A stretch of DNA of 37,551 bases from Nitrososphaerota archaeon (lineage in GTDB: Archaea > Thermoproteota > EX4484-205 > JAAOZP01), in contig JAAOZP010000013.1 in the NCBI GenBank assembly GCA_011605725.1, positions 1 to 37,551 on the forward strand, written 5' to 3'. The notes beneath the pieces are model-generated. The model saw only the letters and a program-made list of their open reading frames with translations. It did not search any database and was not told the DNA's origin. Position 1 is the stretch's first letter; every line of letters begins with the position of its first letter. The position numbers and the translations under genes were made by a program. Shown here in pieces: positions 3,364 to 33,915 of the stretch.

Positions 3364-3933
3364 ATTAGTATTGGGCCGCTATCCATAAATACTTCAACTG
3401 GATACTTGGTTAAGTATTCGAATATTGCAACGATTTCCGCCCGAACCTCCTTCGAAGGTTCATACTTTTTCTCCGTTTCCACGGTAAGCGGTTCTTTCTT
3501 AGGGATTAAGTGGACCGAGTGGATTTGAAACCCATTGCTCTTGACGTTATCCCCAATCTCAAAAACGTATCCCTTATATTTGACTTGGAACGCACAGGCC
3601 TCATTAATGTTGTCATAGCATGAAGAAGTTTGACCGAAGTACCACAATAACCTATAAACTGCTAGTGCCCTGTGCCTGACGAAAATTTTACTATAATCCT
3701 TCTTCCTAGGGTCCCAATTCTCCTTGTAAAAGGAAATAGTACTTATCCAAACGAATAAGAAATGGAGACTCTTTCTTCTCCCGTTCTTTCCACTCTCTCC
3801 ACTCATCCTCAGTAAACTTCTCGACAATAACCTCTTCACCGTTTACCTTAAGCATGATGAAATTCCTGTTTACGTCACTCTTCACGAGCTTGACATCATA
3901 CTCAAGTTTAACGAGCTTATCGCCCTCAAACAC
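3360..3933 (-). pseudogene. Hypothetical protein split by a 1-nt frameshift (ORFs 3706-3933 and 3360-3839)
   Basis: Removing one T from minus-strand TTCCTTTTAC (about 3726-3735) fuses MFEGDK...DKYYFL to YKENWDPRKKDYSKIF...PILI. The stop overlaps the upstream gene stop in TTAA at 3360-3363. Confidence 0.55.
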
Positions 3934-3964
3934 ACGCGCTAACCCTAACCATCGCGCGCGCTAA
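3929..3964. repeat. Tandem pair of junction-palindrome half sites
   Basis: AACACACGCGCTAA (3929-3942) and ATCGCGCGCGCTAA (3951-3964). Confidence 0.6.
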
Positions 3965-4032
3965 CTCTAAGGCTTTTAAGCCTAGTATTCTATAGCAACC
4001 TAATTTGTAGCATACGTCATTCTAGATGTATT

Positions 4033-5097
4033 CTATATTATTGCACATAAGTAGACATCGAAACTCCCGATGTAGACAGTTCCATCCGATCCGATAGCCG
4101 GAGAAGATTCGAGGATTTCATATCCGGTTTTAAGTTTCCATTTCAAGCTACCATCCGTATTAATAGCATAAAGGTAGCCGTCTCTGCTTCCAACATATAC
4201 TGTGCCATCTGCTCCTATTGCTGGAGAAGAATAAACTTGGCCTTCAGTCTTATATTTCCATTTCAAGGTACCATCTGTATTAATAGCATAAAGGTAAGTA
4301 TCCCAGCTTCCAACATATACTGTGCCGTCTAAACCTATTGCTGGAGAAGAATTGATGAAATCTTCAGTCTTATACTTCCACTTTAAGGTTCCATTTAGAT
4401 CAATTGCATAAAGGTAGGCATCATCGCTTCCCATATAGACTATACCGTCTACTCCAATCACGGGAGAAGAATAAATATTACTTCTAATTATACTCCCGTA
4501 TCTAAATTTCCACTTTAATGTTCCATCCGGATTAAATGCGTAAAGATGCTTATCATCACTTCCTACGTATATTATACCATCTGCCCAAATTGCAGGGGAC
4601 GATTCAACAGAGCCCTCAGTCTTATACTTCCACTTTAAAGAGCCATTTGGATTAACTACATAGAGATGCCCGTCATCGCTTCCAAAATATATGGCACCAT
4701 CCATTCCAAGAGTAGGGGAAGAACGGATCGGCCCCTCAGTCTTATACTTCCACTTCAACACTCCATCCGGATCGATGGCATAAAGATATCCTTCAAGGCT
4801 TCCAACGTACACCACTCCATCAAGTCCGATTGCAGGAGAAGATGGGCAGCTCAACTCCTTAATTTCACATTTCCAAACTAAAGAGCCATCTTGGCTGACT
4901 GCATAAAGATAGTCACCACCTCCAATGTATATCGTTCCGTCCGGCCCAATAACGGGAGAATTAAAATGAACAGGCCCCTCAGTCTTATACTTCCACTTCA
5001 ACATAGCCTTCTGCGCGCCCAAATAGGGGGATCTTCCAGTATGCTGGGAGTCGTGTCTGAACATCGGCCAGGGGCTCTCAGATGTCCTTACCTTCAT
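4033..5097 (-). CDS. PQQ-like (BamB-type) beta-propeller repeat protein, about 8 blades
   Basis: WPMFRHDSQHTGRS leader followed by repeated 40-aa units SSPAIGxDGTVYVGSxDxYLYAINxDGTLKWKYKT. Confidence 0.9.
   Translation of the reverse strand: MKVRTSESPWPMFRHDSQHTGRSPYLGAQKAMLKWKYKTEGPVHFNSPVIGPDGTIYIGGGDYLYAVSQDGSLVWKCEIKELSCPSSPAIGLDGVVYVGSLEGYLYAIDPDGVLKWKYKTEGPIRSSPTLGMDGAIYFGSDDGHLYVVNPNGSLKWKYKTEGSVESSPAIWADGIIYVGSDDKHLYAFNPDGTLKWKFRYGSIIRSNIYSSPVIGVDGIVYMGSDDAYLYAIDLNGTLKWKYKTEDFINSSPAIGLDGTVYVGSWDTYLYAINTDGTLKWKYKTEGQVYSSPAIGADGTVYVGSRDGYLYAINTDGSLKWKLKTGYEILESSPAIGSDGTVYIGSFDVYLCAII
4129..5003. repeat. Intragenic about 120-bp tandem repeats encoding the propeller blades
   Basis: 4141-4230 and 4261-4350 are near-identical. 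GGCCCCTCAGTCTTATACTTCCACTTCAACA occurs exactly at 4730-4760 and 4973-5003. Confidence 0.85.
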
Positions 5098-5428
5098 GTC
5101 TCTCCCCCATCCCCAATTGAAACTCTTAAAGTATATTTAAATCTCCATGCTGGAAGCAAGCCTATTATTCAATTCATTAAGATGACTCAGGGCTCGAAGT
5201 ATAGTGGTAAGAAGGTAGTGGTCTTCTTCTATCGAGAAATGCCTAGGAACGTGACCGGAGACGAGTCGAAAGGTTTGATAAGCAATCTTCTTAAGATATT
5301 CCAGGATAGAAGTAGGTTTGAAATAGTTAACGGCGTTATGAGCTTTCGAAGCTCGGTTAATGTCTCTGCCCCGTCCGGCTGCCGGTATCTTCAGAATCCT
5401 CGTCTTCTCGCCTATAAGAACGAATGGT

Positions 5429-5442
5429 TGAGCGCACGCTAA
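5429..5442. repeat. Junction palindrome
   Basis: TGAGCGCACGCTAA. Confidence 0.65.
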
Positions 5443-5524
5443 GAAAACCAGCTTAGGAAACATAAAGCATTGCTTAACCAAGTAGCTTAAATATTTCCGT
5501 TGGGAAGAATATTTGAAAGGCTCT

Positions 5525-7303
5525 ATGTTCCGGTGGAGAAAAAGAGTCGTCGACAAGGTTTTAAACGAATATCTTCAGAAGGCTGAAGCCCTCTCTAAAT
5601 CAAGAGCCTTCGACGAGGCTAAGAAGAATTATGAGAAGGCTGTGGAAAGATGTGACGAGCTTTTAAAACAGGCTCCGGGGAACGATTATCTTCACTGTAG
5701 GAAGGCCCGCGTTCTTTTCGAACTTAGAAGGTATGAAGGACCGGATTGGACTTACGTGAAAAGGTGTAGGGAAGCGCTCGTGGAAATCGATAGGGCGATC
5801 GAACTGGATCCTGAGGATAATGAATATCATCTTAGAAGGAGCGATATCCTTGGGGAACTGGGAGGGACGCCTGACTGGAGTCTTAACGCTGGTCCAGATG
5901 AGGAGCGGACGATGGATACATGGCTTCTTTTCTTTTCTCTTTCACACTACATCAGAGGTTTTATGGTTGATGAACGCGGGATACCGTTTAAGTGCATGGG
6001 AAATGAATACAAGAGTATTGACATAAGGCTTATTGAAACGAAAGACGAGTATGAATCACGTTTAAAAGAAAATCCCAATGATCCTGATCGCTATAATAAT
6101 TTGGCAGCGGCTATGCATGAATTGGGGATGTGGGATATGCGTGCAGACCCTAGGGTTCTTGAGAAGCTGAATAAGGCTATTGCCCTCAATCCTGATAACC
6201 CGGCTTACTACAATAATAGGGCTTTAGTGCTTTACAGCTTGATTATGGATGCTGAATATTTCAGGCACAGGATGGATGGTTGGCCTAAGGATAAACTGGA
6301 CCCTGAGAAAACGCTTCAAGACGTCTACAGAGACTTAAGCAGGGCTGTTGAACAGGATACGCATAACCCCTATTATCATTACAACATGGGGCTGATGCTG
6401 TACGGAGATGGGAGGTACAACCAGGCTATCGATGAGCTTGATAAAGCAATAGCTTTGGATTCAAGCAACCATTATTTCCACTATAAGAAGGGGATGGTTC
6501 TCTACAGGCTTGGAAAAAACGATGAGGCTATTGAATGCTTTAAGGAAGCCTTAGGGTTGTATAAGAAGGACCTTGTCGCCAGATATATGATTAAGCTTAT
6601 TGAAAGAATCCGAGACAGGGAGAGGGGAGTCACGCTGCCAGTAGTGACTACTCCAGAATGGGTTGGGGACGATACGGAGACCAAGGTGTTTCTACAATCT
6701 GGCGATTTAAAACCTGACGAGGCTATTTCGAGAGCTAGGGAGCTAATCTCTATCGCTAAAAAGTTCAATCTGATTGATTCAAATGTTTCGCAGAAGGAGA
6801 TGGAGAAGCTGGAGAAAAGACTCTCAGAAATACTTTCTAAGAAGGAGATTCGCCTCAACTCCCTCATGCTCACCTTATGTTTTCACTGTCCCGCCTACTG
6901 GTTTGACACAGAGATGATATATGGGCCAGAGGACTACGTGGAGCTAGCATCAGAACTATCCCGTATAACTAGGGGGCTACTCCACCTCAGCGGAATCGAC
7001 TGTCGAAAAGTCATGCTTCCTGGCGAGGAGAGTCCTGAGAAATACTTGCTTTCATTCATAGCCGGGGGAGAGAATCACACGGTTGAACTCCCGTTCAAAG
7101 ATGATTGGGCTCAATACGGGCCGATAGTCAGGGTTTTGAACAACATTGCTGGAAAGATTGGAAGGAGAGAAAGATACGTCTCCCTTAACACTATGGATCA
7201 AACAGCATGCCTAATATTCTGCATACCTGAAGATTATGAGGCGTTCAGAAAAACAGTGGTTGAATTACTCCGGCAACGGTCCTCTCCGGACAAAGAGAAT
7301 TGA
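5525..7303 (+). CDS. Tetratricopeptide-repeat protein with an uncharacterised C-terminal alpha/beta domain
   Basis: Multiple TPR units (e.g. YYHYNMGLMLYGDGRYNQAIDELDKAIALD). TATA-like CTTAAATA near 5486. The ORF track starts at TTG 5513; ATG 5525 is preferred. Confidence 0.85.
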   Translation: MFRWRKRVVDKVLNEYLQKAEALSKSRAFDEAKKNYEKAVERCDELLKQAPGNDYLHCRKARVLFELRRYEGPDWTYVKRCREALVEIDRAIELDPEDNEYHLRRSDILGELGGTPDWSLNAGPDEERTMDTWLLFFSLSHYIRGFMVDERGIPFKCMGNEYKSIDIRLIETKDEYESRLKENPNDPDRYNNLAAAMHELGMWDMRADPRVLEKLNKAIALNPDNPAYYNNRALVLYSLIMDAEYFRHRMDGWPKDKLDPEKTLQDVYRDLSRAVEQDTHNPYYHYNMGLMLYGDGRYNQAIDELDKAIALDSSNHYFHYKKGMVLYRLGKNDEAIECFKEALGLYKKDLVARYMIKLIERIRDRERGVTLPVVTTPEWVGDDTETKVFLQSGDLKPDEAISRARELISIAKKFNLIDSNVSQKEMEKLEKRLSEILSKKEIRLNSLMLTLCFHCPAYWFDTEMIYGPEDYVELASELSRITRGLLHLSGIDCRKVMLPGEESPEKYLLSFIAGGENHTVELPFKDDWAQYGPIVRVLNNIAGKIGRRERYVSLNTMDQTACLIFCIPEDYEAFRKTVVELLRQRSSPDKEN

Positions 7304-7361
7304 AAGACAATTAGAATACATGCCTAGAAATGTCTGAAGGAGGACATTATCTCATGTTTTC

Positions 7362-7375
7362 TTAACACGCGCTAA
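7362..7375. repeat. Junction palindrome (full consensus)
   Basis: TTAACACGCGCTAA. Confidence 0.7.
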
Positions 7376-7560
7376 ACGGTTTTCCCGAGAATGTTTAAGT
7401 CAAGCACCATGTTTCTTTTAGAGTGACGTATACGCGTAGAGCGTTGGGCGCTCATGAAAACTGTCGAGTATTGTAGGGGAATTAGTGTTGGAACTCTTAA
7501 TGCTTCTTAAAAATCGTAATAAGGCGGATGTGTATGAATAATGGAGAAAGAAATTTTTAA

Positions 7561-7800
7561 CTATGTTTTTATCACATATTCGCAGTACGGGTCTCCTGTC
7601 GCTACGCATTTTGTCTCAACGGCTTTAGCTTCCTCCTCGAATATGTTTGCGAAGAAGCCTGCTAGGATCCCCATGGTGAAGTGTCCGTAGGGTTTCTCAC
7701 TCCCCTTTCCTGTTTCACACTCGTAGCTTTGGTAGACGCGTACCGTTGCTTCTCCTGCTTCAGGATTGATCTCTGCATACTCCAGTATTCCCCAGCGCGC
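7561..7800 (-). pseudogene. C-terminal fragment of a V4R (4-vinyl-reductase) domain protein
   Basis: WGILE...GHFTMGILAGFFANIF...VETKCVATGDPYCEYVI is the V4R signature. The N-terminus is missing and replaced by GCGCGCGCGC/TTCACGCGTGTTAA. Confidence 0.75.
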
Positions 7801-7821
7801 GCGCTTTTTCACGCGTGTTAA
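7793..7821. repeat. Junction palindrome pair at the V4R breakpoint
   Basis: CAGCGCGCGCGCTT followed by TTCACGCGTGTTAA. Confidence 0.65.
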
Positions 7822-7958
7822 AAAGACAGGTGTTTAAATAGAAACATCAAGCCTGGTTAGGAGTTGAAAAAAGCACATGTTTTTTGTGGGATCCTTTTCC
7901 CCGGTTCCTAGCGAAGGAAGACTACTAGCGTCGAAACGCAACATCGTCATTAAGCACG

Positions 7959-8216
7959 CTACACCATTATCTTCGGAATACGATTCATGTCCTTACACTC
8001 AACAACTACGTTTCCCTCCGGAGACCCAGCTAAAACATCGATCTCATGCTTGGCGGAGCCTGTGCTCGCCGGAACAATCATATCCCACTCCGTCTCGAAT
8101 CCAGCGGCGTCAAATATCTGCTGCACGTATCTTTCCAGCCATTCCCCTTTTTCGTCACCAACCCTTCCTTGAGGAACCTCAATTCTGGTTTTCCTCTTAA
8201 CCCGATGAAACGGCAT
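7959..8216 (-). pseudogene. Mrr-like PD-(D/E)xK nuclease, 3'-truncated
   Basis: KGEWLERYVQQIF...HEIDVLA...VVVECK motif. It stops 10 codons after ECK, at a TAG that belongs to a palindromic half-site. Confidence 0.65.
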
Positions 8217-8516
8217 ATGAGGAGTAGGCTTGACCATTTGACCGGGCTTACCCGAAACCTTGTTGAGGCAACTGCCTGCCACAATAACCGCAGAAAGCAT
8301 CATTAGGGCCTACAGCTTCACCGCAATAAGGACAGTAGAAAGCCTCTGGACTAGACATTACAATTAAACAACAAGGCATTAAATATAAGTCTTCGCACTT
8401 AAGCATAAAACAATAAGGCTGAACCCTGGAAATTATTTACAGCACACATTAGCAAGAATACTGGTCGCGATTCAAAGGAAAAACTTATAGTTTGTTAAGA
8501 TACCATGTATTAGCAT

Positions 8517-8530
8517 GTAGCGTGCGCTAC
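8517..8530. repeat. Junction palindrome
   Basis: GTAGCGTGCGCTAC. Confidence 0.65.
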
Positions 8531-8667
8531 CTTCTTATCTAAAACTTTGAATTTCAGTGAAGAGAATTGAAAGAAAGCGGACGCGCTAAACATATTACAC
8601 AAACATCCTCGAAAAACATCCAAAAAACCCGTAGAAACACGCGGCAAACCATACCACCCTCCTGAAA

Positions 8668-8716
8668 AACTTAAACCTTAAATACACCTCTCCAAAGCTA
8701 AGGAGACAGAAGGAGG
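8668..8716 (+). promoter_or_regulatory. TATA-like element and Shine-Dalgarno of tuf
   Basis: CTTAAATA at about 8677-8684; GGAGG at 8712-8716, upstream of ATG 8725. Confidence 0.5.
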
Positions 8717-8724
8717 AAAGAAAA

Positions 8725-10050: not shown

Positions 10051-10115
10051 TTTCTCTTAGGTTCTTGTTTTTTCAACCGTCTTTATGCTTATTCTTTTTT
10101 AATTTCTTTTTCTGG
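10051..10115 (+). terminator. T-rich archaeal terminator region after tuf
   Basis: Several T6-T7 tracts directly after the stop codon. Confidence 0.5.
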
Positions 10116-10392
10116 GTTTGAGTGGGCTGTGTCGGCTGTTTTTCTTGAGGCGGCTTATGTTTTTTCTGTTTCCTCCTGGCGGATGATGGCGTGCTTCTCC
10201 AGGTGTTTCAGCCGGGTTTTCTCTTCTTCGGGTCTACGTGTCTATACGCGTTTTTTTCTCAGGCTGGCGTGTAGCATCATGGTTGGGGGTTGCTTGCTCT
10301 TAATGTTGGCTGCTGTTTAGGCGTCGTAGTTTTTTGCAAAAGCTTGTAGTTATTAACCGCAAGCTTTATTAAAAAGCTTGTGAAAATAGTTT

Positions 10393-11685
10393 TTGTTGAA
10401 CGCCGAGGATTTGAAGAGGGTGGTGGCTTCGCAGAGGGAGGAGATGGAGAGCCTATTTGCTTCGGAGAAGATAATAGAGAGGGATGTTGACGCCGGGAGG
10501 CTGAGGGGTTTTCTTTCACACCCGAATGTTTTGACTGTTCTCGGCGTGAGGCGGTGCGGCAAGTCGCTTCTCTCATGGATGCTTCTCAAGGGTGTGAAGT
10601 TTGGGTATGTCAACTTTTTCGATGAAAGGCTCGTCGGCTTTGAGGCGAAGGATTTTGGAAGGCTGCTCGATGCTTTCTACCAGCTTTACGGCTCGGATTT
10701 AAAGTTCATGGTTTTAGACGAGGTTCAGCATGTCGGCGGCTGGGAGAGGTTCGTGAGCAGGATGAGGACTTCTAAAAGGATCATTGTGACTGGGAGCAGT
10801 TCTCAACTGCTTTCAAGCGAGCTTGCTACGCTCCTCACCGGGAGGCATGTTGACTTCGTGCTTTTCCCGTTTAACTTCAGGGAGTTTCTTAGGATACGCG
10901 GCGTGGAGCTGGATGAGAACTGGCAGTATCAGACGAGTAGGGTTTCCACGGTTAAGAGTATGCTTGAAGAGTATCTTAGAACAGGAGGGTTTCCGGAGGC
11001 CAGCAGGTTCGGCAGGAGGATCCTGGTATCCATTTATTCCGACGTGCTTGAAAAGGATGTTGTAAGGAGGCGTCGCGTGAAGAAGACGGTGGCCCTTAAA
11101 GAGTTTGCGAGATACATGGTTTCAAACGTTTCCTCCGAGTTCAGCTTTAACAGGCTTAGGAGGATGCTGGGCGTGAGGGATGTTCACACGGTTAGGAACT
11201 ACGCTGAATGGGTGGGTGAAGCCTATCTCTTGTTTTTCCTAGAAAGGTTTTCGCCGAAGCTTAGGCTTCAATACATTTCCCCTAAGAAAGCCTACTGTGT
11301 TGACAACGGGATCGTGTCTTCAATCGGGTTCAGGGTTTCTGAAAGCCTTGGTAGACTTATGGAGAACCTGGTGGCTGTTGAGCTGCTGAGGCGGAGAAGC
11401 TACTCTTTCAGCGACTTCGAAGTCTTCTATTGGAGGGACTACCAGCAGAACGAGGTTGATTTCGTCGTGAAAAACGGCTTAAGCATTAAGCAGCTTATAC
11501 AGGTGACCTATGCCAGCGACAGGGATGAGGTTAACCAGCGGGAGGTTAAGGCGCTGCTCAAGGCTTCGAAAGAGCTGCGTTGCAAAAACCTGTTGGTGAT
11601 CACGTGGGATTACGAGGATGAAGCTGTTTCGAACAGTGAGAAGGTGCGTTACGTCCCTCTTTGGAAATGGTTGTTGAATCCTTAG
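10393..11685 (+). CDS. AAA+ ATPase, COG1373 family (AAA_14 plus DUF4143)
   Basis: GVRRCGKS, LDEVQ, TGSSS, LTGR, GGFPE, EN.VA.EL and EVDFVV motifs. Confidence 0.93.
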   Translation: MLNAEDLKRVVASQREEMESLFASEKIIERDVDAGRLRGFLSHPNVLTVLGVRRCGKSLLSWMLLKGVKFGYVNFFDERLVGFEAKDFGRLLDAFYQLYGSDLKFMVLDEVQHVGGWERFVSRMRTSKRIIVTGSSSQLLSSELATLLTGRHVDFVLFPFNFREFLRIRGVELDENWQYQTSRVSTVKSMLEEYLRTGGFPEASRFGRRILVSIYSDVLEKDVVRRRRVKKTVALKEFARYMVSNVSSEFSFNRLRRMLGVRDVHTVRNYAEWVGEAYLLFFLERFSPKLRLQYISPKKAYCVDNGIVSSIGFRVSESLGRLMENLVAVELLRRRSYSFSDFEVFYWRDYQQNEVDFVVKNGLSIKQLIQVTYASDRDEVNQREVKALLKASKELRCKNLLVITWDYEDEAVSNSEKVRYVPLWKWLLNP

Positions 11686-11689
11686 TGTT

Positions 11690-12421: not shown

Positions 12422-12616
12422 GCGTCAAGACCCTGTTTCCAGGCTTAAATTCTTTCACAGTGCGGCTTCAAATTCCCGTGTTTCCCCGTATTCTTAATAG
12501 CGGCTTAAGCTTGTCTGAGTTTAGCCTGTGTGCTGACGGATTGTTCAAGCCGGTTCATCGGGATGCTGCTCGGAGTATTGCTTATTAACCCTGCGTGCGC
12601 TTTAGGCGTCGCAGTT

Positions 12617-14148: not shown

Positions 14149-14229
14149 CTAGGTAGCGCGCGGCTTAGGGCTGTTGGAGTGCAGAGAAAGTTTTATTCGC
14201 AGGCAGCCTGTCTCCGGAAGCGTGGGAGC

Positions 14230-16183: not shown

Positions 16184-16195
16184 AGCAGAAGCCTA

Positions 16196-16318
16196 GGTTT
16201 ATAAACGCGCCCTTTTTCAAGTCTCCTAGCGTCTTGGGCAATAATGGATGCTTCCATCCAAACATGCTTCCCTAACTATTGTTTCTCCGCAGACTATGCA
16301 TGGTTTGCTAACGCGCGC
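16196..16318 (+). repeat. Dispersed about 110-120 bp intergenic repeat, copy A
   Basis: Aligns by eye with 17873-17981: TTATAAA..TTCAAG.CTCC..GGATGCTTCC..AACTATTGTT.CTCCGCA..GCAT.GGTTTGC.AACG. Confidence 0.7.
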
Positions 16319-16468
16319 GGGGGAAGCGAGGAGTCTTACGGCCACTTCTCAAGGGGTCGTGCAGCAGGGTTTTTCACGCGATTATTAGACAGGGATGTGA
16401 AGACTGTTGAAACAATGTGCATCGCTAAGGGAGACTCCTGGTGCGAGTTCACGATAGGAGAGTTGTGA
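16319..16468 (+). pseudogene. Second C-terminal V4R-domain fragment
   Basis: SYGHFSRGRAAGFF...VETMCIAKGDSWCEFTI; homology begins directly after CTAACGCGCGCG. Confidence 0.7.
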
Positions 16469-17872: not shown

Positions 17873-17981
17873 GCCTTATAAAACGCCCAGCCTTCTTCAA
17901 GCCTCCCACATCCTGGGTATAGGGGATGCTTCCGCCAACTATTGTTCTCCGCAAGCTAGGCATTGGTTTGCCAACGGCGCT
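17873..17981 (+). repeat. Dispersed intergenic repeat, copy B
   Basis: Homologous to 16196-16318. Confidence 0.7.
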
Positions 17982-18010
17982 TCAGTATCCTCAGATCTAC
18001 AGTACACGTC

Positions 18011-18036
18011 TTTTTTTTTTTAAAAAAATAAAGGGG
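18011..18036. terminator. Bidirectional T-tract terminator
   Basis: T11 followed by A7TA3, between the convergent genes ending at 17767 and 18056. Confidence 0.55.
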
Positions 18037-18055
18037 ATTCGAGGATTATTTTCGC

Positions 18056-19654
18056 CTACGGGTATACTATGGGATAGCAGGGTCCTGTGCAAACGAACGG
18101 TAGCCTGTTATTGTTAAGTCCGTCCAACAGGTTCTTCCAATACTCCTGCTCAGCCCTACTAGCTCCGCTTAATGCGGAGTTAGCCTTTGCCATGATCTCA
18201 TCGATGCTTATGAAGCCGCTGGGCACGTAGGTTGAAGAACCAACATAGACGATTGTTGAGCCGCTGAGGAAGCTGTGTAGAACGTTGAGTTTTGTTGCGA
18301 GCAGCTGCGCGGAAAGCATCCAACGCATGTCTTTTCCAGTTGCATTTAACAAGTAGTTTTTGATTTGAGTTTTCTCCGTTGCAAGATCACCGCTGAATGG
18401 TGGATATGTCCATCCGGTTGGATTGTAAAGGTTAAGCGCATTCAGCTCCGTCACATCGCTGGAAGTTATCAGTGACTGTCCGTTCTTGTTGCTCCAGAAG
18501 CCTAACGTTCTGCCTCCAGTGCCCTGCATCAAGCAGACGTTTCCAAAGTCCTTATCTGTGTAAGTCTGTCCTAACTCGACTATGATTACATAGTAGCCGC
18601 TTTCAGGGGCTGTCCGAACCCACATTCCAGACGGCATTACCTCAACAACCCTATAGGTTCCAGCTTCAGTCACTGTAAAAGTGTAACTACCATCACTCCC
18701 AGTGTAAGCCGTAGCAACGGGAACCCAACCCATCGCATCATTATACCTGTACAGCTCGATCTTCCATCCCGCTATGCCCGCCTCGCCAGAGTCCCATTCG
18801 CCGTTTAAGTTTGCATCGTAATATTTAACCCCGCTAATAGTTGCCGACGGTGGAGTAATGCATTTCACCGTAACAGTGGCAGAAGCAGATTGTCCAGTTT
18901 CCAGAATAGTCGCAGTATTCTCGTTTGTTCCTTCATCTTCACATGTAAAGGTCTTATCATAAGTAACGGAGCCGCTGCTGCTGAAAGTCCATGGGCCACC
19001 ATTAGTATCATCAACGTGAATCACGTCGTTAATCAATGTCGGACTGTTCGGCAAATTAGTAGTAGCGCTTGGACTTGGACCATAAGGCTCGCCTAAGTGT
19101 CCTGAGTGGTTTGTGATTGTTACATTAGCAGTAATCTTGTATGTGCCAGTGCCTATAGGTGGCGGAATCGCTATCTCATACTGATATTCTCCGGTCTCTC
19201 CAGGGTCAAGAACGGGTTTAGAGCTAACATCAACAGATGCGGTTGCGATCAAATCGTTTGGCGGTGGAACGCCGTCTTTAAGCTCAATTATAATTTTCAA
19301 GTTTTCAGTAGCAACATTTCCGCCATTCTTGACAGATACCGTGCCCTTTATGAAGTATGCATCCGTGTAACCATCCTTTGTCACAGTAATCGTGTATGTC
19401 GATGTTCCATACCCACCTGGGTAAAACTCCCAATAGTCAGGTTTAACAGATTTCTCAATTGTCCAGCTGAAAGTGCGTGTCCAGTAGGCTGTCGCGGTCA
19501 CATTCGCCTTGAGTGTTGTTCCCGCCTGCCCCTGTCCATCCTCTGCAGTGCCTCCTACAGTGAAGTGCACTAGCATCTTAGGCGTGGCTATTGTTGAAAC
19601 CATGAATGCTGTTAACAGTATTCCTAATAGAATGGATTCTGATTGTTTTCTCAT
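18056..19654 (-). CDS. Secreted/surface protein with Ig-like modules and an SdrD-B/Cna-B-like domain
   Basis: N-terminal signal peptide, Thr-rich beta modules, ISGVKYYDANLNGEWDSGEAGIAGWKIEL..TGSDGSYTF..GTYRVVE..DFGN and a GRTLGFWSNK C-terminal domain. Confidence 0.8.
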   Translation of the reverse strand: MRKQSESILLGILLTAFMVSTIATPKMLVHFTVGGTAEDGQGQAGTTLKANVTATAYWTRTFSWTIEKSVKPDYWEFYPGGYGTSTYTITVTKDGYTDAYFIKGTVSVKNGGNVATENLKIIIELKDGVPPPNDLIATASVDVSSKPVLDPGETGEYQYEIAIPPPIGTGTYKITANVTITNHSGHLGEPYGPSPSATTNLPNSPTLINDVIHVDDTNGGPWTFSSSGSVTYDKTFTCEDEGTNENTATILETGQSASATVTVKCITPPSATISGVKYYDANLNGEWDSGEAGIAGWKIELYRYNDAMGWVPVATAYTGSDGSYTFTVTEAGTYRVVEVMPSGMWVRTAPESGYYVIIVELGQTYTDKDFGNVCLMQGTGGRTLGFWSNKNGQSLITSSDVTELNALNLYNPTGWTYPPFSGDLATEKTQIKNYLLNATGKDMRWMLSAQLLATKLNVLHSFLSGSTIVYVGSSTYVPSGFISIDEIMAKANSALSGASRAEQEYWKNLLDGLNNNRLPFVCTGPCYPIVYP

Positions 19655-19745
19655 TTTTTGTCACTGTAAGGAGGGTCTTTTCAAGCGCCTTATAAGGCTT
19701 TCTTTTAAGCTTTAGTATGTTCAGGGTTTTACAGACATGGAAACA

Positions 19746-19816
19746 GTTTATTTTCGTTTAAAAGCCTTAAAAAAGGTTTATTTTCGTTCGGAAGTTTGAA
19801 AAAGTTTTAATTCGTT
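19746..19816. promoter_or_regulatory. Three direct repeats GTTTWWTTCGTT-like, spaced 28-30 bp; probable operator array
   Basis: GTTTATTTTCGTT at 19746 and 19776, and GTTTTAATTCGTT at 19804, upstream of the TATA (about 19690) of the 19654 gene. Confidence 0.55.
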
Positions 19817-20044
19817 TATGGGCTGTGGGAACAGAGTGGGCTGGTCGTGCTGTTTAGCACGCCGTTGGCCACGCGCCTAAGCCGCGTCTTTAAAACATTG
19901 TTAAATACGCTTATGCTTTGTTATACGCTGGTTTTTAAATTCCTACACCGCACGTCTTCACGGTTTCGATCAGCGTGCACACATGCCTGCCTCACGTTTT
20001 GAAACATGTTATTATGGAGAAAAAAAGACGGGGTTGTTTCCCTG

Positions 20045-23302: not shown

Positions 23303-23392
23303 GTTTACTAACCACCTTCTCCGCTCTCCCACTGGCCTGGGTGAAAATAAGCTTTTATAGAAAAACATCCGGCTTAAGCCTAATGCTGAACC

Positions 23393-24475: not shown

Positions 24476-24508
24476 GGTTTATCAACATGCTTGACTCCGG
24501 GTTGAAGC

Positions 24509-25051: not shown

Positions 25052-25088
25052 GAGTGTTTATAAACATCTTTTCAAAGGGGTTTGAAGC

Positions 25089-26229: not shown

Positions 26230-26242
26230 TGGTATACACCGG

Positions 26243-27313: not shown

Positions 27314-27411
27314 GGTGTCTAGGCGAATGGGGGAAAGATTTATCTTTAAGCCTTTCCCTGCTTTGGACGGTTCAGGTTCTAGAGGTGTTTAGGAGGTTGG
27401 CAAGCATTAAT

Positions 27412-28056
27412 ATGAAGACAGGCAGAATAGGGGTAGTCGACCCTCTCTGGGGCACCACGACGGTTGGAATATCCTGCACGGATGGTGTTGTCTTAGCTTC
27501 AGACACTAGGGTTGTTCAAGGATACTATTTTATCGCTCATAAACGTGGAAAGAAGATCCTGAAAATAGATGATTATATTGCTGCAACCATTTCCGGCGGG
27601 GTTGCCGACGCGCAGGCTCTTATAAGCACACTACAGTGGGAAGCACGGTCCTACAGGCTTGAAAGAGGAGTAAACATGCCTGTTAAGGCGGCTGCGAACA
27701 TTGCTTCGATAATCCTCTCTTCGACGCGCATGGCACCCCTCTACATTCAGCTTATAATAGGAGGATACGACAGGGAGGGAGCCAGCCTATACGTGCTGGA
27801 CCCGCTAGGAGGCTTCTCTAAAGAGGTTTTCGTAGGGTCAGGATCAGGTTCTCCCGTCGCGCTCGGGTATCTTGAGGCTGAGCTTAAGCCGCCGGTTAGC
27901 GTTGAAAACGCTGTACCCATCGCTGTCAAATCTATTCTCGCAGCCATGCAGAGGGACACTGCTACCGGGAATGATTTTGAGGTTATGATTGTCGACTCGA
28001 AAGGATGTAGGGAGCTAACGCTTGAGGAGAAGACAAGGCTGACTGGTTTAAGATGA
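27412..28056 (+). CDS. psmB: Proteasome beta subunit, catalytic
   Basis: Propeptide followed by G-TTTVG, ASDTR, GSGS and RDTATG; coupled to aCPSF1. Confidence 0.95.
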   Translation: MKTGRIGVVDPLWGTTTVGISCTDGVVLASDTRVVQGYYFIAHKRGKKILKIDDYIAATISGGVADAQALISTLQWEARSYRLERGVNMPVKAAANIASIILSSTRMAPLYIQLIIGGYDREGASLYVLDPLGGFSKEVFVGSGSGSPVALGYLEAELKPPVSVENAVPIAVKSILAAMQRDTATGNDFEVMIVDSKGCRELTLEEKTRLTGLR

Positions 28057-29954
28057 GTGTTGAGAAAGACATAAGGGAAGTAATCTTCGAGAAAATACCT
28101 AGAGAAGCCCAGATAGTCGGCATAGAGATGGAGGGGCCTACTATAGCTGTCTACGTTGAGAACCTGAGCTTCCTTGTGAACGGGCAGCAGGTTCTGGCTG
28201 AGGTTGCGAAACAGCTTAGAAAAAGAATTGTCGTGAGGCCGGCTGTTAAAGCGAGAAAGCCGAAGGATGAGGCTGAGAAGATAATTAGGCAGCTGGTTCC
28301 TAAGAAGGCTGGTGTCGAGGCTGTTGTTTTCAACGATGTTTTCGGCGAGGTTCTGGTTTCAGTCAGGCATCCGGATGCTGTTGAGGAGCTTGGGGAGAAG
28401 GTTCTGAACGACATTATGGTTGAAACAGGATGGAAGCCCAGCATTATACGAATACCTCCACTAAGCACCACGGTTATACCGCAGGTAATGTATGTTTTCA
28501 ACCAGAACGCTGAAGAGAGGTTTAAGATTCTCAGGGAGATCGGGGAAAGAATATTCAGGAAACCCCTGTTTAAGACTGAAACCATTACTCTGACTTTCCT
28601 AGGTGGTGCTGAGCAGGTTGGAAGGTCCAGCATACTTGTTTCAACAGACGAGAGCAATATCCTTATGGATTTCGGGATAAACCCTGCTGCAAGCTCCTAC
28701 GCGGACTCTTTCCCAAGAATCGACAGGATACCCATCTCTGTTGAAGACATAGATGCCGTAGTAGTTTCCCATGCTCATTTGGACCATATGGGTGGGCTTC
28801 CACTGCTTTTCAAATACGGCTACCGTGGCCCGGTTTACATGACTGAGCCTACAGTACACTTGATGTTTCTACTGCTTAACGATCTTTACGATGTTCTCCA
28901 GAAGAACGGTGTCACACCCTTTTTCGAGCTTAAGGATCTCAGGACTATTCTGCAACACACGATCCCGGTGAAATTCGGCGTCGTCGTCGATGTTGCTCCA
29001 GACATTAAGCTGACGTTCAGAAACGCTGGCCACATACTGGGTTCCGCGATAATTCACCTCCACATCGGCGAGGGGCTTCACAACATTGTCTTCACAGGGG
29101 ACTTAAAGTATGACCGCTCCATACTGCTTGAGCATGCTTCAACAATGTTCCCCAGGGTTGAGACGCTGATAACGGAGTGCACCTACGGCGGTGTGAACGA
29201 CACGATGCCGCCTAGGGAGGAGGTTGAGAACAGGCTTATATCCCTGGTTAACTCAACGCTTGAGAAAAACGGGAACGTTCTTATCCCCACGCTCGCCGTT
29301 GGAAGAGCTCAGGAAATAATGCTGGTTCTGGATAACGCTATTAGGAGCAAGAAGATTCCTGAAGTACCTATTTATGTGGACGGCATGATTTCAGAGGTTA
29401 CTGCGATACACGCCTCGTTCCCCAACTATCTTTCTAAGGATCTAAGGGAGATGATGAACAGCGGTGTAAACCCGTTTAAATCCGAGTACGTGATCCCTGT
29501 TAAAAGCTCGATTCCGAGGGAGGAGATAACTGAAGCGAGACGCAACATTATTCTTTCTCCTTCAGGAATGCTTGAAGGCGGCCCAGTTATAGAGTATTTC
29601 AAGCTGATCGCTCCACAGGAGAACTCTACGGTGATATTCGTAAACTACCAGATAGAGGGGACGCTTGGAAACAGGGTTTTAAACGGCCTTAGAGAGCTTA
29701 CGATGCAGAACTCCAACGGCAGGGTTGAAGCAATAACTATTAAAAGCGCTGTGGAGAGGGTTGACGGTTTCTCCGGCCATTCTGACAGGAACCAAATCCT
29801 GAACTATGTTAGAAGGGTTTACACTAAAAGAGGACCTCTCTTTCTAGTCCACGGGGAGGCTAAGAAGATCCAGAACATGAAGAAGTTTTTAAGCAGGGTC
29901 TACGGGGACAACGTTTACTCTCCGCGGCTCCTGGAAACCTACAGGGCGCTTTAA
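28053..29954 (+). CDS. fttA: beta-CASP ribonuclease aCPSF1 / transcription termination factor FttA
   Basis: N-terminal KH domains, LGGA.QVGRS, SHAHLDH, AGHILGS, FSGHSD and VHGE. Confidence 0.96.
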   Translation: MSVEKDIREVIFEKIPREAQIVGIEMEGPTIAVYVENLSFLVNGQQVLAEVAKQLRKRIVVRPAVKARKPKDEAEKIIRQLVPKKAGVEAVVFNDVFGEVLVSVRHPDAVEELGEKVLNDIMVETGWKPSIIRIPPLSTTVIPQVMYVFNQNAEERFKILREIGERIFRKPLFKTETITLTFLGGAEQVGRSSILVSTDESNILMDFGINPAASSYADSFPRIDRIPISVEDIDAVVVSHAHLDHMGGLPLLFKYGYRGPVYMTEPTVHLMFLLLNDLYDVLQKNGVTPFFELKDLRTILQHTIPVKFGVVVDVAPDIKLTFRNAGHILGSAIIHLHIGEGLHNIVFTGDLKYDRSILLEHASTMFPRVETLITECTYGGVNDTMPPREEVENRLISLVNSTLEKNGNVLIPTLAVGRAQEIMLVLDNAIRSKKIPEVPIYVDGMISEVTAIHASFPNYLSKDLREMMNSGVNPFKSEYVIPVKSSIPREEITEARRNIILSPSGMLEGGPVIEYFKLIAPQENSTVIFVNYQIEGTLGNRVLNGLRELTMQNSNGRVEAITIKSAVERVDGFSGHSDRNQILNYVRRVYTKRGPLFLVHGEAKKIQNMKKFLSRVYGDNVYSPRLLETYRAL

Positions 29955-30139
29955 AATTCTCCACGGGCTCAGGCTGAAAAACACTCGTTTCCCTCCTTCC
30001 CAGCGGTTTAACAGTGTACCGTTAGCATTTAACGTTTGAAGAAGCATAGCGCGCTGAATTCAACAGGCAACGTTTTTCAAACATGCCTCCGGCAGACTGG
30101 AAAAGTATTTATTTAAGCTTTCAGCAGAATCCTTGAGAA

Positions 30140-30388
30140 TTGTCCGCAGACACTACGATGGAGCTGCTTCAAGCATCCCTTGGAAAGAGCATAATAGTGA
30201 AGCTTAGAGGAGGTGCAAAAATACGTGGAATCCTAGACGGGTATGATCCTCATCTTAACATTGTGCTTTCCGACGCTGAGGAGCTTAAGGGAAACGAAAC
30301 TACTAGGCTTGGGCTGATCGTGATAAGGGGGGACAACGTGATACTGATCTCGCCCCCGATAGAGTATAAGCCTGGTGAAAAGGAGTAG
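30140..30388 (+). CDS. Sm-like archaeal protein (Lsm/SmAP)
   Basis: VKLRGG..IRGILDGYDPHLNIVL and IVIRGDNV; lies upstream of rpl37e. Confidence 0.95.
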   Translation: MSADTTMELLQASLGKSIIVKLRGGAKIRGILDGYDPHLNIVLSDAEELKGNETTRLGLIVIRGDNVILISPPIEYKPGEKE

Positions 30389-30394
30389 AGGAAA

Positions 30395-30595
30395 ATGGGC
30401 AAGACCTCAGCCGGGACAACAGCCTTCGGAAGGCTGCACAAGAAGGCGACTCACAAGATATGCAGGAGATGTGGAAGAAGGTCTTTCAACATTAGGAAGA
30501 AGTATTGCGCTGCATGCGGCTTCGGCAGGAGTCCAAGGATAAGAAGATACTCTTGGCAGAACAAGAAACTGCAGAGGACTGTGAGAGTTGTCTAG
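30395..30595 (+). CDS. rpl37e: 50S ribosomal protein L37e
   Basis: GT.AFG...[13 protein letters not shown]...[16 protein letters not shown]. Confidence 0.97.
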
Positions 30596-30598
30596 GCT

Positions 30599-31237
30599 TT
30601 GACGGCTGATTTAAATAGCAGAGTCAGCCTTCTCATCAAAGAGTCCTACGAGTACTTGAGGAGGCAGGAGGACGTTAAGTATGAGCTTCTCAGAAGCATA
30701 AGCAGCGTTGTGAAGAAGTGCAGAAGCTCCGTTAAAGCATCCTACGCTCAGGACTTTACGGCTTCGAAAAGAATACTTAACGATGTGCAGCGTGACATAG
30801 CGAGGCTGGTTAAAACTGCTTACCGGGAGGGGGTCTGGGAAACATGGCCCCCCATAGTTCAGACGTACCAGGAGTTTCTCGAGGCTGTTCTAGTATACTG
30901 GTTCACATCCGGCAGGGAGTATAGGCTTAGGGTTAAGCCTCCTCCTGCTTCAATACTCTACGCTGTCTCAGACTTCATAGGCGAGTTGAAAAGAGTTATG
31001 CTTGAGCATCTTAGGAGAGGCCGGTTGAAGGAGGCTGAGGAAACCTACGGGATCATGGTGCAGCTCTACGAGAATGTTTCGACAATCGCGCTCGGAGACT
31101 CCGTGCTGCCGGGCTTCAAGAGGAAGATAGATGTTAACAGGTCCTCAGTGGAGTCCGCGTTCTCAATTCTGAACGAAGAGCTCCGTAGAAGAGCCTTCCT
31201 AACATCCGTGGAAAAATACTTTGAGAAGCTTCGCTGA
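30599..31237 (+). CDS. Translin family protein (COG2178)
   Basis: QEFLEA, SDFIGELKR and FKRKIDV motifs. Confidence 0.85.
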   Translation: MTADLNSRVSLLIKESYEYLRRQEDVKYELLRSISSVVKKCRSSVKASYAQDFTASKRILNDVQRDIARLVKTAYREGVWETWPPIVQTYQEFLEAVLVYWFTSGREYRLRVKPPPASILYAVSDFIGELKRVMLEHLRRGRLKEAEETYGIMVQLYENVSTIALGDSVLPGFKRKIDVNRSSVESAFSILNEELRRRAFLTSVEKYFEKLR

Positions 31238-31258
31238 CAGCTTTAAACCCAGGGAAGC

Positions 31259-31882
31259 TTGAAGCTGGATCAGACTCTGTATGAAAAGCTTTGTGAAACC
31301 CAGAGACGCATTTCTGAAAAAGTCATCGTCGCAAGCACATGCGGTGGTGAAGTTGAAAGGATTGCTGGCGTCGACGTTTCGTATCGTGGCGATTCCGCCG
31401 TCGTAGGCTTCGCGGTTTTCAGCATTGCAGAAAACAGGATAATTCTTGTAAGTGTTTCAAGAACATTTTCAAAAATACCTTACGCATCCTCTCTCCTATG
31501 CTTCAGAGAAGGCCCTGTTGTCCTCCCTGTTCTTAGAAGATTCTTCTCGGAGTATGATATTCTGCTGGTTAACGGTCATGGGCTTGCCCATCCGAGAAAA
31601 TGCGGCTTAGCGACATATCTTGGAGTATTGCTTAAGAAGCCTACTGTCGGCGTTGCGAGAAGACCCTTAGGGAGGCTTGAAGAGGAGCATAACGTTAACA
31701 ATTTAAGGGCGTTTGGAAACAGGTTTTACTATAGCGTGGGAAACATGGTGACTCTGGAGGAGGCGTTCAACGTGCTTAGGAGAACAACCCCGGAGAACAG
31801 GAGGCTCCCGATACCTCTTGAGGCTGCACACCTGTTCTCGAGAAGAGCATTAAGGCTGGTGGCTGGTGATGAAAGAGTATAG
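31259..31882 (+). CDS. nfi: Endonuclease V family protein
   Basis: IAGVDVSY, FREGP, G.G.AHPR.CGLA, PTVGVA and RLPIPL..AH. Confidence 0.9.
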   Translation: MKLDQTLYEKLCETQRRISEKVIVASTCGGEVERIAGVDVSYRGDSAVVGFAVFSIAENRIILVSVSRTFSKIPYASSLLCFREGPVVLPVLRRFFSEYDILLVNGHGLAHPRKCGLATYLGVLLKKPTVGVARRPLGRLEEEHNVNNLRAFGNRFYYSVGNMVTLEEAFNVLRRTTPENRRLPIPLEAAHLFSRRALRLVAGDERV

Positions 31883-32555
31883 GAAGATGTTCATGCTGAT
31901 CGCGATTGCGAAGCTTGCTGAAGAGGAGAAGACGCCTGTTTCAACAAGAAGACTCTCTAAGACTACTGGGGTTTCGCATCAATCCGTCTCCAGGTATCTC
32001 AGGGAGCTTGAGAAAGAAGGCCTTGTTGAAACAGTGATGACGCCGAGAGGGCGGGTTATAAAGCTGTCAAGCAGAGGGTTAAACCAGCTTAAGCTTCACG
32101 CTGGCACAATCCTATCCTTAATAAACAGGGTTGACAAGACCTATGTTTTCACCGGAAAAGTTTTCACAGGACTCGGTGAAGGAGCATACTATGTTTCCAG
32201 GAAGCCGTATCTTGAGCAGTTCTACTCTAAGCTCGGCTTCTACCCTTATCCTGGAACTTTAAACCTTAGGATAGAACAGTATATGGATCAGCTTCTGCTC
32301 ATCGAGAAAATGTCTAAACCACCGATCTTCATTCAGGGCTTCACGAATCATGAGAGAACCTTCGGAGACGGGTATTGCTACCCGGTTATCGTAAGTAATA
32401 ATTATGAGGGTGCCATAGTTAAGGCTTTAAGAACTGTTTACGATAGTTCTGTGGTTGAAATAATCTCGCCCTACAATCTCAGGAAGGAGTTGAAGCTTAA
32501 GGACGGGGATACTGTAACCTTCACTTTCAAAAACGTTGAAACAGGTAAAGGGTAG
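31866..32555 (+). CDS. ribK: CTP-dependent riboflavin kinase with N-terminal winged HTH (RbkR type)
   Basis: HTH SHQSVSRYLRELE; GLGEGAYY, GFYPYPGTLN and EIISPYNLR. Confidence 0.94.
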   Translation: MMKEYRKMFMLIAIAKLAEEEKTPVSTRRLSKTTGVSHQSVSRYLRELEKEGLVETVMTPRGRVIKLSSRGLNQLKLHAGTILSLINRVDKTYVFTGKVFTGLGEGAYYVSRKPYLEQFYSKLGFYPYPGTLNLRIEQYMDQLLLIEKMSKPPIFIQGFTNHERTFGDGYCYPVIVSNNYEGAIVKALRTVYDSSVVEIISPYNLRKELKLKDGDTVTFTFKNVETGKG

Positions 32556-32575
32556 GATGCTGCGAGAAGCCTCAG

Positions 32576-33019
32576 CTACGTGCTCCTGATCTTCTCAATA
32601 ATCTTGCTCGTGCTCGTGTTGAAAAACTTCCTCATTTTAATTATCTTGATTCCGAGCCCAAGCCTTTTCAAAACTCTTTGAGTCCTCCTCATAATGCTGT
32701 TCTGATCATAGCCGAAGACAATAACATCAGGCTTAAGCCTCTTCAGAAACCACTCGATATTCTTATCAATCTCGCCCTTTCTTCCAATATAAACCTTGTC
32801 AACCGGCTTAAGCCTTGAAACCATGAAAGCACGGTCCCTAGCCTTAAACATCGGGCTCCTCCCCTTACTATCTTTAACCACGCTGTCGCATGCAACAATA
32901 ACAAGGAGTCTACCATCCTCACCCGCCAGACGCTTAGCCTCCTCAAGAAACCTTATGTGCCCAGGGTGGATAATGTCGAAAACACCTGTTGTAAGAACAA
33001 CCCTGCTTCTCCTGCTCAT
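32576..33019 (-). CDS. ribL: FAD synthase (cytidylyltransferase family)
   Basis: GVFDIIHPGH, PDVIVFGYDQ and STSKII; adjacent to ribK. Confidence 0.85.
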   Translation of the reverse strand: MSRRSRVVLTTGVFDIIHPGHIRFLEEAKRLAGEDGRLLVIVACDSVVKDSKGRSPMFKARDRAFMVSRLKPVDKVYIGRKGEIDKNIEWFLKRLKPDVIVFGYDQNSIMRRTQRVLKRLGLGIKIIKMRKFFNTSTSKIIEKIRST

Positions 33020-33270
33020 AGCCTGATCTCCGCCTTACTGTAGGTTCCTCATCACTATAAAAGCACTCCGGTTAAAGAAGCCTTGGTTCAACACTCGCCG
33101 TGAAGAGGCTTAAGCCAGTCGAAGAAAACCTCGTGTTTTAAGCATCCGTAAGGCTGAGCGGCTGAAAGACCTGCCTCCATGCGGCTGGAAGCATCCCCCT
33201 GGATAACGGGATAAAAGACCACAATAATGTTGCGAAGCATCCGATACCTGTAAGCCTAAATACTGCGGAG

Positions 33271-33285
33271 GAAAAACTTTTATTA
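33271..33285 (+). promoter_or_regulatory. BRE/TATA promoter of tRNA-Lys
   Basis: GAAAAACTTTTATTA ending about 27 bp before the mature 5' end. Confidence 0.65.
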
Positions 33286-33311
33286 CCCCTGTTAGGCTTG
33301 GAAAAGCACAA

Positions 33312-33416
33312 GGGCCCGTAGCTCAGACGAGAAATATTTAAATATGTCTCGGGGCAGCATGGCAGAGCAGCAGGCTCTTAACCTGACGGTCGAGGGTTCA
33401 AATCCCTCCGGGCCCG
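33312..33416 (+). tRNA. tRNA-Lys(CTT) with a 31-nt non-canonical intron at position 15/16 (33327-33357)
   Basis: Acceptor GGGCCCG/CGGGCCC, anticodon loop CT-CTT-AA and T arm GAGGG-TTCAAAT-CCCTC. The intron folds into a bulge-helix-bulge/loop (GCTC/GGGC helix, AGA and AGC bulges). Confidence 0.93.
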
Positions 33417-33507
33417 CTAACTTAATCGTTTAAAGCCCGTGTAGGAGGAAAAAAGTATGACGCCTGTTAAGTAGTATGCTTAAACCTTCCATTATACTAT
33501 TGCAGAG

Positions 33508-33521
33508 ATAGCGCGCGCTAG
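33508..33521. repeat. Junction palindrome downstream of tRNA-Lys
   Basis: ATAGCGCGCGCTAG (perfect 12-bp palindrome). Confidence 0.65.
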
Positions 33522-33915
33522 AAAGAGGCTGGTTCCAACGTTAGTGATTGCGGTATGTGCGTTAATCAAATTGGCCATGCGTCGAGGTTTGACTACGTAT
33601 TCTTCACAATTATTCTCATCGAGCATGCAAACTATCCCGCTCTTTAATTCTGTTTGCATGAGAAATCAGCGTTTTCACCTTAATTATCGCCACTAACTTG
33701 CCTCTTCGATACACGCGGAAGTCTGATCCTGTTTAAATGACCCTGTGGACCCAAGCTTTTTCAACAGTCAGAAGACTTTATTCTTACCTCGCTATAAAAT
33801 GGTAAACAAAGGTTTCACAGCGTTGTCATCAGACTGTTTACGCTGTGTTAACACGGCGGGGCGGCGATATTCTCCTGCAAAGACTTAATAGCGTCTCCTG
33901 CTTTAACACTGATGA

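Follow-up and report, generated by a model that had tools for sequence, protein, structure and literature searches.

A short GC palindrome that recurs in a 37,551-nt archaeal contig (Nitrososphaerota archaeon, GenBank JAAOZP010000013.1; this whole stretch is hereafter the window) is a scar formed de novo when DNA is joined and not the boundary of a gene cassette, a conclusion well supported by the comparison of related alleles. New (GC)n tracts, with about 3-10 bases that come from neither parent, arise at the junctions of deletions and rearrangements, also inside genes. As judged from sequence comparison, the best explanation is that the palindrome is probably the trace of a form of end joining in which sticky ends are newly written.

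The window is contig C8 of genome G000 (2.23 Mb, 20 contigs). Its deoxyhypusine synthase is 91-92% identical to those of Candidatus (Ca.) Brockarchaeota and related metagenome-assembled genomes, and the sequencing runs that contain the stretch come from hot springs and sediments; the host appears to be a Ca. Brockarchaeota-like archaeon. All data underlying the analysis are metagenome assemblies, in which X-numbered runs (X4, X6, X9 and X12) are same-species contigs and the other G-numbers are relatives' genomes.

A GC palindrome enriched in spacers

An earlier note on this DNA had described a recurrent 14-bp palindrome and proposed that it marks the borders of accessory gene modules. The recurrence is real and far above chance, but the motif is a 12-mer with the consensus TA(GC)4TA that is found throughout G000: a palindromic position weight matrix (PWM) converges on this 12-bp core, and the outer TT/AA of the 14-mer hold ~0.02 bits. 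Among the short words of the genome, those centred on (GC)n show the strongest over-representation, and the perfect 12-mer TAGCGCGCGCTA occurs at 28 sites where an order-3 Markov model expects 0.04 (both strands). The enrichment also holds against shuffled sequence, with 439 intergenic sites of PWM score at least 8 compared with 56 in dinucleotide shuffles. At a score of at least 12 the density is 108 per 100 kb in spacers and 3.5 per 100 kb in genes (~30-fold). Tracts of the form A(GC)nT number 59 for n=3, 88 for n=4 and 20 for n=5. The purine/pyrimidine degeneracy of the motif is CG>TG/CA decay, which accounts for 136 of 182 single mismatches, and copies show decay graded by age. Among 41 relatives, enrichment was confined to the host genus, whose members carry 8-54 strict sites in genomes of mostly 1.8-2.3 Mb and 1-6 in smaller genomes.

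Rescoring the 20 positions listed in the earlier note left eight with a score of at least 11, three weak ones and nine at background (Table 1). The neat bracketing of single modules by sites (propeller, nuclease, hydrolase, vapBC, mttB and ferritin) is doubtful because it was partly built on these nine non-sites, among them 12415, which lies in the start-codon region of a racemase. What stands is that the motif is located where genes get lost and rearranged, with enrichment at module edges and at synteny breakpoints, and that it is scarce in conserved DNA: spacers that align through in G016 hold 2 sites in 22.8 kb, compared with 24 in 32.9 kb of spacers that do not. The argument against a simple operator was borne out as well, since distances to start codons are flat, without fixed promoter spacing, sites are not conserved at orthologous genes, and density peaks in convergent spacers (1.35/kb, versus 0.85/kb in divergent and 0.83/kb in tandem ones).

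Tracts form de novo at the junction

Of 52 collinear indels, 14 carried the motif where the short allele is joined, compared with 2 of the 104 long-allele ends (p=4e-6); no long allele had it at both ends. In the alignment of G000 with 1.19 Mb of G016 (84% identity), motif sites were rarely aligned through between genomes (8/219 and 2/351, versus 171/623 and 120/1009 for controls), and alignment ends concentrated at the motif edge (52/183 versus 41/657; 41/130 versus 28/455). Breakpoints between relatives do coincide with the motif, as the earlier note had anticipated, but the parental ends are without it, the bases of the tract are present in neither parent, and breakpoints lie inside coding sequences.

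Single junctions illustrate this. The (GC)5 replacement at 10355/11423 was seen in two studies, and the parental ends that it retains are A and T, neither G nor C. At 10864..11038, G012 is intact like the window, and the 8 bases of G016 are found in neither. At 16309..16320, where the window itself is the deleted allele, X4, X6 and X9 retain an intact 845-bp allele between 16313 and 16317, and G002, G016 and G009 are intact at this locus with the motif at neither end. A same-species loose end at 3497 runs on as A(GC)5TA. For 24 tracts, both flanks could be mapped to a tract-free parent in a way that point substitution does not explain: 14 were deletions (11 of them of 50 bp to 6.4 kb), 3 were short insertions and 7 joined distant places. 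A clean gene gain, flanked on either side by fresh scars and paired with an empty site free of them, was not found.

The last parental base sets the added bases

At ends with an alignable parent, the bases added depend on the last parental base: AGC follows T (19 ends), CGC follows G (15), GCG follows C (11) and GCG follows A (10). The rule for the first base (T>A, A>G, G>C, C>G) was obeyed at 55 of 62 clean ends, the other 7 being directly off-register. A is added after T and hardly ever after G, C or A. The same rule predicts the flank frequencies of the whole genome, giving 0.387 for TA-G where 0.392 is observed. Simpler rules failed this comparison: always adding G predicts 0.08, and always adding AG predicts no C-starts and fails on the flank spectrum.

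De novo junction tracts were also present in Ca. Methanodesulfokora-like contigs (96-97% alike) and in similar low-GC contigs (98-100% identity). There the few cases follow a second version of the rule (A>T, T>G, G>C, C>G), and in Bathyarchaeial genomes the flanks of the tracts are TAGC, TACG or mixed. What unites these variants is the addition of the base complementary to the terminal one, except that one weak base is diverted to G or C. Since the added base is set by the last parental base, every end enters a self-complementary GC repeat.

A likely mechanism is tail-and-anneal. A DNA break would be followed by resection of the ends, and a polymerase would extend each 3′ end under the last-base rule into a (GC)n tail. 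Because such tails are self-complementary, any two ends could anneal over GC pairs; annealing in variable register, fill-in and ligation would complete the joint. Once formed, the scars change through CG>TG/CA transitions and 2-nt slippage, and they persist where there is no counter-selection (spacers, gene wrecks and accessory regions). Clustering at the borders of accessory genes would then arise because deletions survive only there.

Some observations speak against this account. As 38 of the 52 indels have no scar, joining that leaves one can only be one route among several. At 28 further ends, 1-3 unexplained bases stand ahead of the tract, which may reflect divergence from a parent that is 85% identical. 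Finally, a chance-matching base that is counted as parental inflates the rows for A, G and C ends, though not the 19 cases of the T row.

Alternative origins of the tract

The same scars could be produced without tailing if free palindromic TA(GC)nTA oligonucleotides, made by a primase or left by a nuclease, were bridged into breaks through 1-2 bp of microhomology on each side. Every clean scar matches a contiguous portion of TA(GC)nTA and shares at least 1 base with either parent, so that the fit equals that of tailing. We nevertheless consider such linker capture unlikely: no source of the oligonucleotide was found (there is no copy conserved between genomes and no reverse transcriptase), and the lineage variants with ATGC and TACG flanks would each require a separate one.

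Very unlikely, in our view, is a model with no special writer, in which a tract left by ordinary microhomology deletion at 1-3 GC pairs grows through slippage of GC dinucleotides. PriSL does anneal ends over 2-4 GC pairs (PMC12019639). Tract lengths do vary in 2-nt steps and differ among relatives at one site, and the tract at 3929 is 2 nt longer in X4 and X12. Slippage from a microhomology does not account, however, for the 10 GC bases at 10355/11423 between parental ends A and T, nor for the non-parental A that follows a T end 19 times, and it would leave unexplained why AT and AC repeats show no such enrichment (27 tracts of at least 8 nt for AT and 12 for AC, compared with 200 for GC).

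We also regard it as highly improbable that the palindrome is what a mobile element left behind, a few bases of its termini remaining after insertion, deletion of adjacent DNA and excision. The TA flanks recall the target duplications of IS630/mariner elements. The IEE protein of E. coli links the excision of insertion sequences (IS) to a polymerase in the AEP (archaeo-eukaryotic primase) family (PMC9943667). In G000 there is no repeated element with such ends, the long alleles are intact host genes without the motif, and the TA is often absent or non-parental, the footprint changing with the last host base; neither a TA target duplication nor a full element with matching ends was seen.

The proposal of the earlier note, that tyrosine-recombinase crossover sites or HIP1-like hot spots shuffle cassettes, is extremely improbable. 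In its favour are the strong enrichment at module edges and breakpoints and the presence of one integrase in G000. Secondary recombination between old scars may occur, one long allele having a site at one end. We reject the proposal because such sites must pre-exist on both parental ends, yet the parents are without the motif; the tract bases are non-parental, the breakpoints are intragenic and the sites are not conserved. Nor does the distribution of a recombinase match that of the motif: PF00589 was found in G000 and G007 only, and no tyrosine recombinase was found in G016, which is 94% complete and has the most sites. We give equally little credence to an assembly or library artefact, conceivable for metagenome assemblies, and to a transcription-factor or Z-DNA signal ((GC)n being a classic Z-DNA former), given an identical junction in two studies and in two species (G006 and G010) and age-graded decay on the one hand, and on the other the lack of a fixed distance to start codons and the peak in convergent spacers.

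Candidate writers

Several enzymes and templates were considered as the source of such self-written sticky ends. No reverse transcriptase (PF00078) was found in 31 genomes, a search that a very divergent one could escape. The LigD polymerase domain (PolDom, PF21686) was not found in five scar-rich genomes (G000, G016, G463, G483 and G485), and a crude motif-regex scan gave no Ku. The copy number of ATP-dependent ligases does not match the distribution of scars, being two in all five genomes compared; the second copy (G000:C9:42756-44360) is present in scar-rich and scar-poor genus members alike. DinB was discarded, as it was not found in scar-rich G463. A second RadA is associated with scars in Bathyarchaeia (21/25 scar-rich genomes versus 77/176; odds ratio (OR) 6.8, a hand count from the table) and is far too common, and therefore it was rejected as the cause. 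PriS and PriL showed no obvious difference by eye between scar-rich and scar-poor genomes, although the priL of G463 (L332:16875-17924) is apparently split into frames of 110 and 237 aa, which may be an assembly frameshift. As for templates, the 1.19 Mb compared held no conserved copy of the motif, and a template derived from 16S had no match in the assembly.

The writer may be a PriS-type primase-polymerase, an assignment that we make tentatively, with AEP2, a stand-alone PriS paralog, as the best candidate and the housekeeping PriSL as the alternative. AEP2 is a bare PriS core of 260-280 aa (Pfam PF01896) with invariant catalytic residues D96, D98, H152 and D204 (motif I DxD, motif II SGxxGxH, motif III D); its predicted fold is that of PriS (pLDDT 89; top Foldseek hits PriS, E 7e-11). 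It is under purifying selection, and a quick tree, in which two rows are RadA, separates it from housekeeping PriS. Between genomes, dS is 1.2-1.9 for AEP2 and radA2 compared with 0.7 for housekeeping PriS, suggesting exchange. In G000 it closes a dinB-radA2-AEP2 cluster, in which radA2 is 50% to the canonical copy and behind which lies a HEPN-MNT pair (G000:C7:376692-380751); dinB, radA2 and AEP2 are possibly an inducible repair or mutagenesis module. Elsewhere on this contig (309420-317900), a 2826-aa open reading frame (ORF) with a TGRR motif possibly encodes an intein-bearing replication or transcription protein.

AEP2, whole or broken, is present in 7 of 10 scar-rich members of the genus and in 0 of 7 scar-poor ones, and scars tend to be fresher in genomes whose copy is whole (one-sided p=0.02; kin are not independent, and the genome with a broken copy was left out). 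Outside the genus, 71 foreign contigs with AEP2 homologs of 41-52% identity hold 95 tracts in 347 kb, and among Bathyarchaeia-class genomes (n=201), 5 of 9 carriers are scar-rich compared with 20 of 192 non-carriers.

Several points count against AEP2 as the writer. The control loci for the foreign contigs (13 tracts in 1315 kb) are core and not accessory DNA, and kin are again not independent. An accessory gene taken as a control likewise shows a link to scars (OR 3.4), and its difference from AEP2 is non-significant (p=0.11). The genomes with the freshest scars hold the most diverged AEP2 copies (dN/dS 0.21-0.30). Lastly, G463 is a single contig of 1.98 Mb with 177 perfect (GC)5 tracts, 16 of 22 fresh, and the same TA flank, and neither AEP2 nor DinB was found in it; AEP2 was likewise not found in scar-rich G483, G485 and G604. 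With a scar-rich genome in one contig that is without it, AEP2 is therefore unproven as the writer.

AEP2 is often broken or fragmentary and at times lies inside integrated elements, a pattern that fits a transient mutator but also a passenger. A wrecked second radA2-AEP2 copy in G000 (C12:18311-18857) starts at a perfect A(GC)4T tract, and similar fragments occur in G002, G006, G007 and G016. The copy of Ca. Methanodesulfokora (L301:2762-19836) lies in what looks like an integrated element, together with an integrase, TnpB and a restriction-modification pair. AEP2 loci have no conserved partner gene (an RNase_H_2 exonuclease follows it in 5 loci), and AEP2 was not found in viral contigs. Other AEPs were noted: a further PriS-like group (L321, G512:C29; P0213-P0266) of 400-450 aa with a long C-terminal extension, distinct from both housekeeping PriS and AEP2, and an extra AEP in scar-rich Bathyarchaeia G566 (L322) and G512 (L323), that of G566 being a LigD-type primase-polymerase domain by Pfam, with which the G512 copy groups.

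Scars and other features of the window

The homology of the remnant at 7561..7812 to relatives' V4R genes begins at residue 7, directly past the tract (tblastn). The vapC-mttB spacer is ~100 bp shorter in the window than in G007 and G009, and G006 and G010 have a tract of their own at the place of the missing hydrolase-vapBC. The region around 8518..8529 is different in each relative. Table 1 collects these sites.

Table 1. Scars, junctions and rescored sites (positions in the window unless a genome is named)
Feature	Position	Strand	Basis or remark
AAA-ATPase-region stretch, intact and motif-free in the window	10355..11423	+	1067 bp (10356-11422) replaced by (GC)5 in X4 and X9
Part of AAA-ATPase, intact in the window	10864..11038	+	175 bp replaced by 8 non-parental bases (A + GC repeat) in G016
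Stretch intact in the window	7297..8373	+	1075 bp (7298-8372) replaced by 10 bases (CG repeat + T) in X6
Deletion-junction scar fusing the interiors of two genes	16309..16320	.	bases 16314-16316 non-parental
Chimeric ORF created by the 16308 deletion; tail is a V4R-domain remnant	16244..16468	+	Pfam V4R, residues 24-72
A(GC)5T scar at truncated 5′ end of V4R gene remnant	7794..7805	.	PWM 14.0
V4R gene remnant starting within the scar	7561..7812	-	Pfam V4R; tblastn
Slightly decayed scar, vapC-mttB spacer	14154..14165	.	PWM 11.1 and alignments
Perfect TA(GC)4TA within 1.26-kb HEPN-MNT segment	33509..33520	.	segment absent from G002
Putative scar with one transition, variable region upstream of EF-1alpha	8518..8529	.	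PWM 16.9
Putative decayed scar downstream of TPR gene	7363..7374	.	PWM 14.5
Putative scar with one transition, between propeller and TPR genes	5430..5441	.	PWM 15.8
Putative scar beside 75-aa orphan ORF, with weaker neighbour at 3930-3941	3952..3963	.	PWM 17.9 and 9.7
AEP2, stand-alone PriS paralog	G000:C7:378975-379796		overlaps second radA, downstream of dinB
Listed positions scoring at least 11	3951, 5429, 7362, 7793, 8517, 14153, 16308, 33508		PWM
Weak listed positions	3929, 7808, 30046		PWM
Listed positions at background level	4007, 7949, 8576, 12415, 13372, 15616, 19854, 19867, 33552		PWM

Other features of the window were noted. Positions 1-3363 are an ORF of >1097 aa with no Pfam match, of which relatives carry diverged paralogs; the initial 369 bp match the beginning of contig C19 at 91% identity. 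The stretch 8559-8604 has multi-copy matches in relatives, and joints in run X6 loop back with 30-37 intervening letters; it resembles abundant repeat words of the genome and is possibly an orphan CRISPR repeat upstream of EF-1alpha. A 2.1-kb block with SdrD/prealbumin domains (17875-20016) is missing from G016, G002 and some same-species contigs, and the joint that lacks it has ~25 other letters and no GC scar, making it a scar-free indel. A tRNA gene that ARAGORN missed (33345-33416, Rfam) precedes the HEPN-MNT segment (33418-34683), and a second tRNA, probably intron-containing, is at 37415-37521.

Discussion

How double-strand breaks are rejoined in most archaea, without Ku, is largely an open question. 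The nearest precedent is the microhomology-mediated end joining (MMEJ) of Saccharolobus islandicus PriSL, an enzyme with terminal transferase activity that joins ends annealed through 2-4 GC pairs and leaves C-favouring insertions at repaired breaks (PMC12019639). The likeness extends to archaeal break repair without Ku, terminal transfer by an AEP, annealing over few GC pairs and GC-biased insertions. However, PriSL indels are mostly of 1-2 bp and its microhomology is pre-existing (PMC12019639), whereas here 3-10 bases of a fixed alternating sequence are set by a last-base rule and deletions are of 50 bp to 6 kb. Correlations across genomes and contigs may point to a link between the scars and a PriS-type enzyme.

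Non-parental bases at the junction together with loss of flanking DNA are the hallmark of end joining with filler DNA. Added junction nucleotides are shared with non-homologous end joining (NHEJ, by Ku and the LigD PolDom, an AEP-fold polymerase that bridges ends), with the N-nucleotides of TdT and with the filler of Pol theta. To our knowledge, the fillers described so far are either random or copies of flanking sequence, in contrast to the fixed GC filler described here. Classical NHEJ differs further in its enzymes, given the searches for LigD PolDom and Ku reported above. In the literature outside subscription papers we found neither an account of a fixed GC filler nor one of the motif in Brockarchaeota.

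IEE is also an accessory AEP that promotes deletions and genome diversification; it is an AEP-helicase with MMEJ activity that requires at least 4 bp of homology and its helicase domain (PMC9943667), whereas AEP2 has only the PriS core and no link to IS was seen. HIP1 of cyanobacteria is, like the palindrome, a short, hyper-abundant, lineage-restricted and GC-rich palindrome, over-represented as the motif is here, but it is conserved and frequent in coding DNA (PMC5861425), while the motif avoids genes, is not conserved between genomes and arises at junctions. DRT3 and DRT7 similarly make enzyme-defined alternating or palindromic DNA without a genomic template. They are antiviral systems based on a reverse transcriptase, with protein-templated repeat synthesis and a free DNA product (PMC13314766; 10.64898/2026.04.18.719102); here no reverse transcriptase was found and the product is built into chromosomal junctions. 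With integron attC and other tyrosine-recombinase sites the motif shares its place at the edges of accessory genes, but there are no paired pre-existing sites and no integrase that tracks it, and whole genes do not move as units, the junctions cutting inside coding sequences.

The genomes of the scar-rich clade are larger (mostly 1.8-2.3 versus 1.2-1.5 Mb, a single phylogenetic contrast), which hints at a role in gene gain. Going further than the choice of a PriS-type writer, and a little more doubtfully, several hot-spring and sediment archaea might share a mobile PriS-like primase-polymerase dedicated to this task, which would read the terminal base of any broken 3′ end and append a self-complementary (GC)n tail, so that all ends become compatible with one another. 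This would be a natural universal sticky-end system with lineage-specific entry rules (TAGC, ATGC, TACG) that drives deletion, rearrangement and possibly gene capture.

The palindrome suggests that broken DNA ends are made to adhere in a way not described before. A junction tag governed by a rule is a readable record of repair in uncultured lineages, and it yields a sharp biochemical prediction of the base that is added to each terminal base. If one small thermostable enzyme does this, it would represent a new mode of sequence-defined DNA synthesis, beside DRT3/DRT7 and the CCA-adding enzymes, and might serve as a tool with which arbitrary DNA ends are joined.

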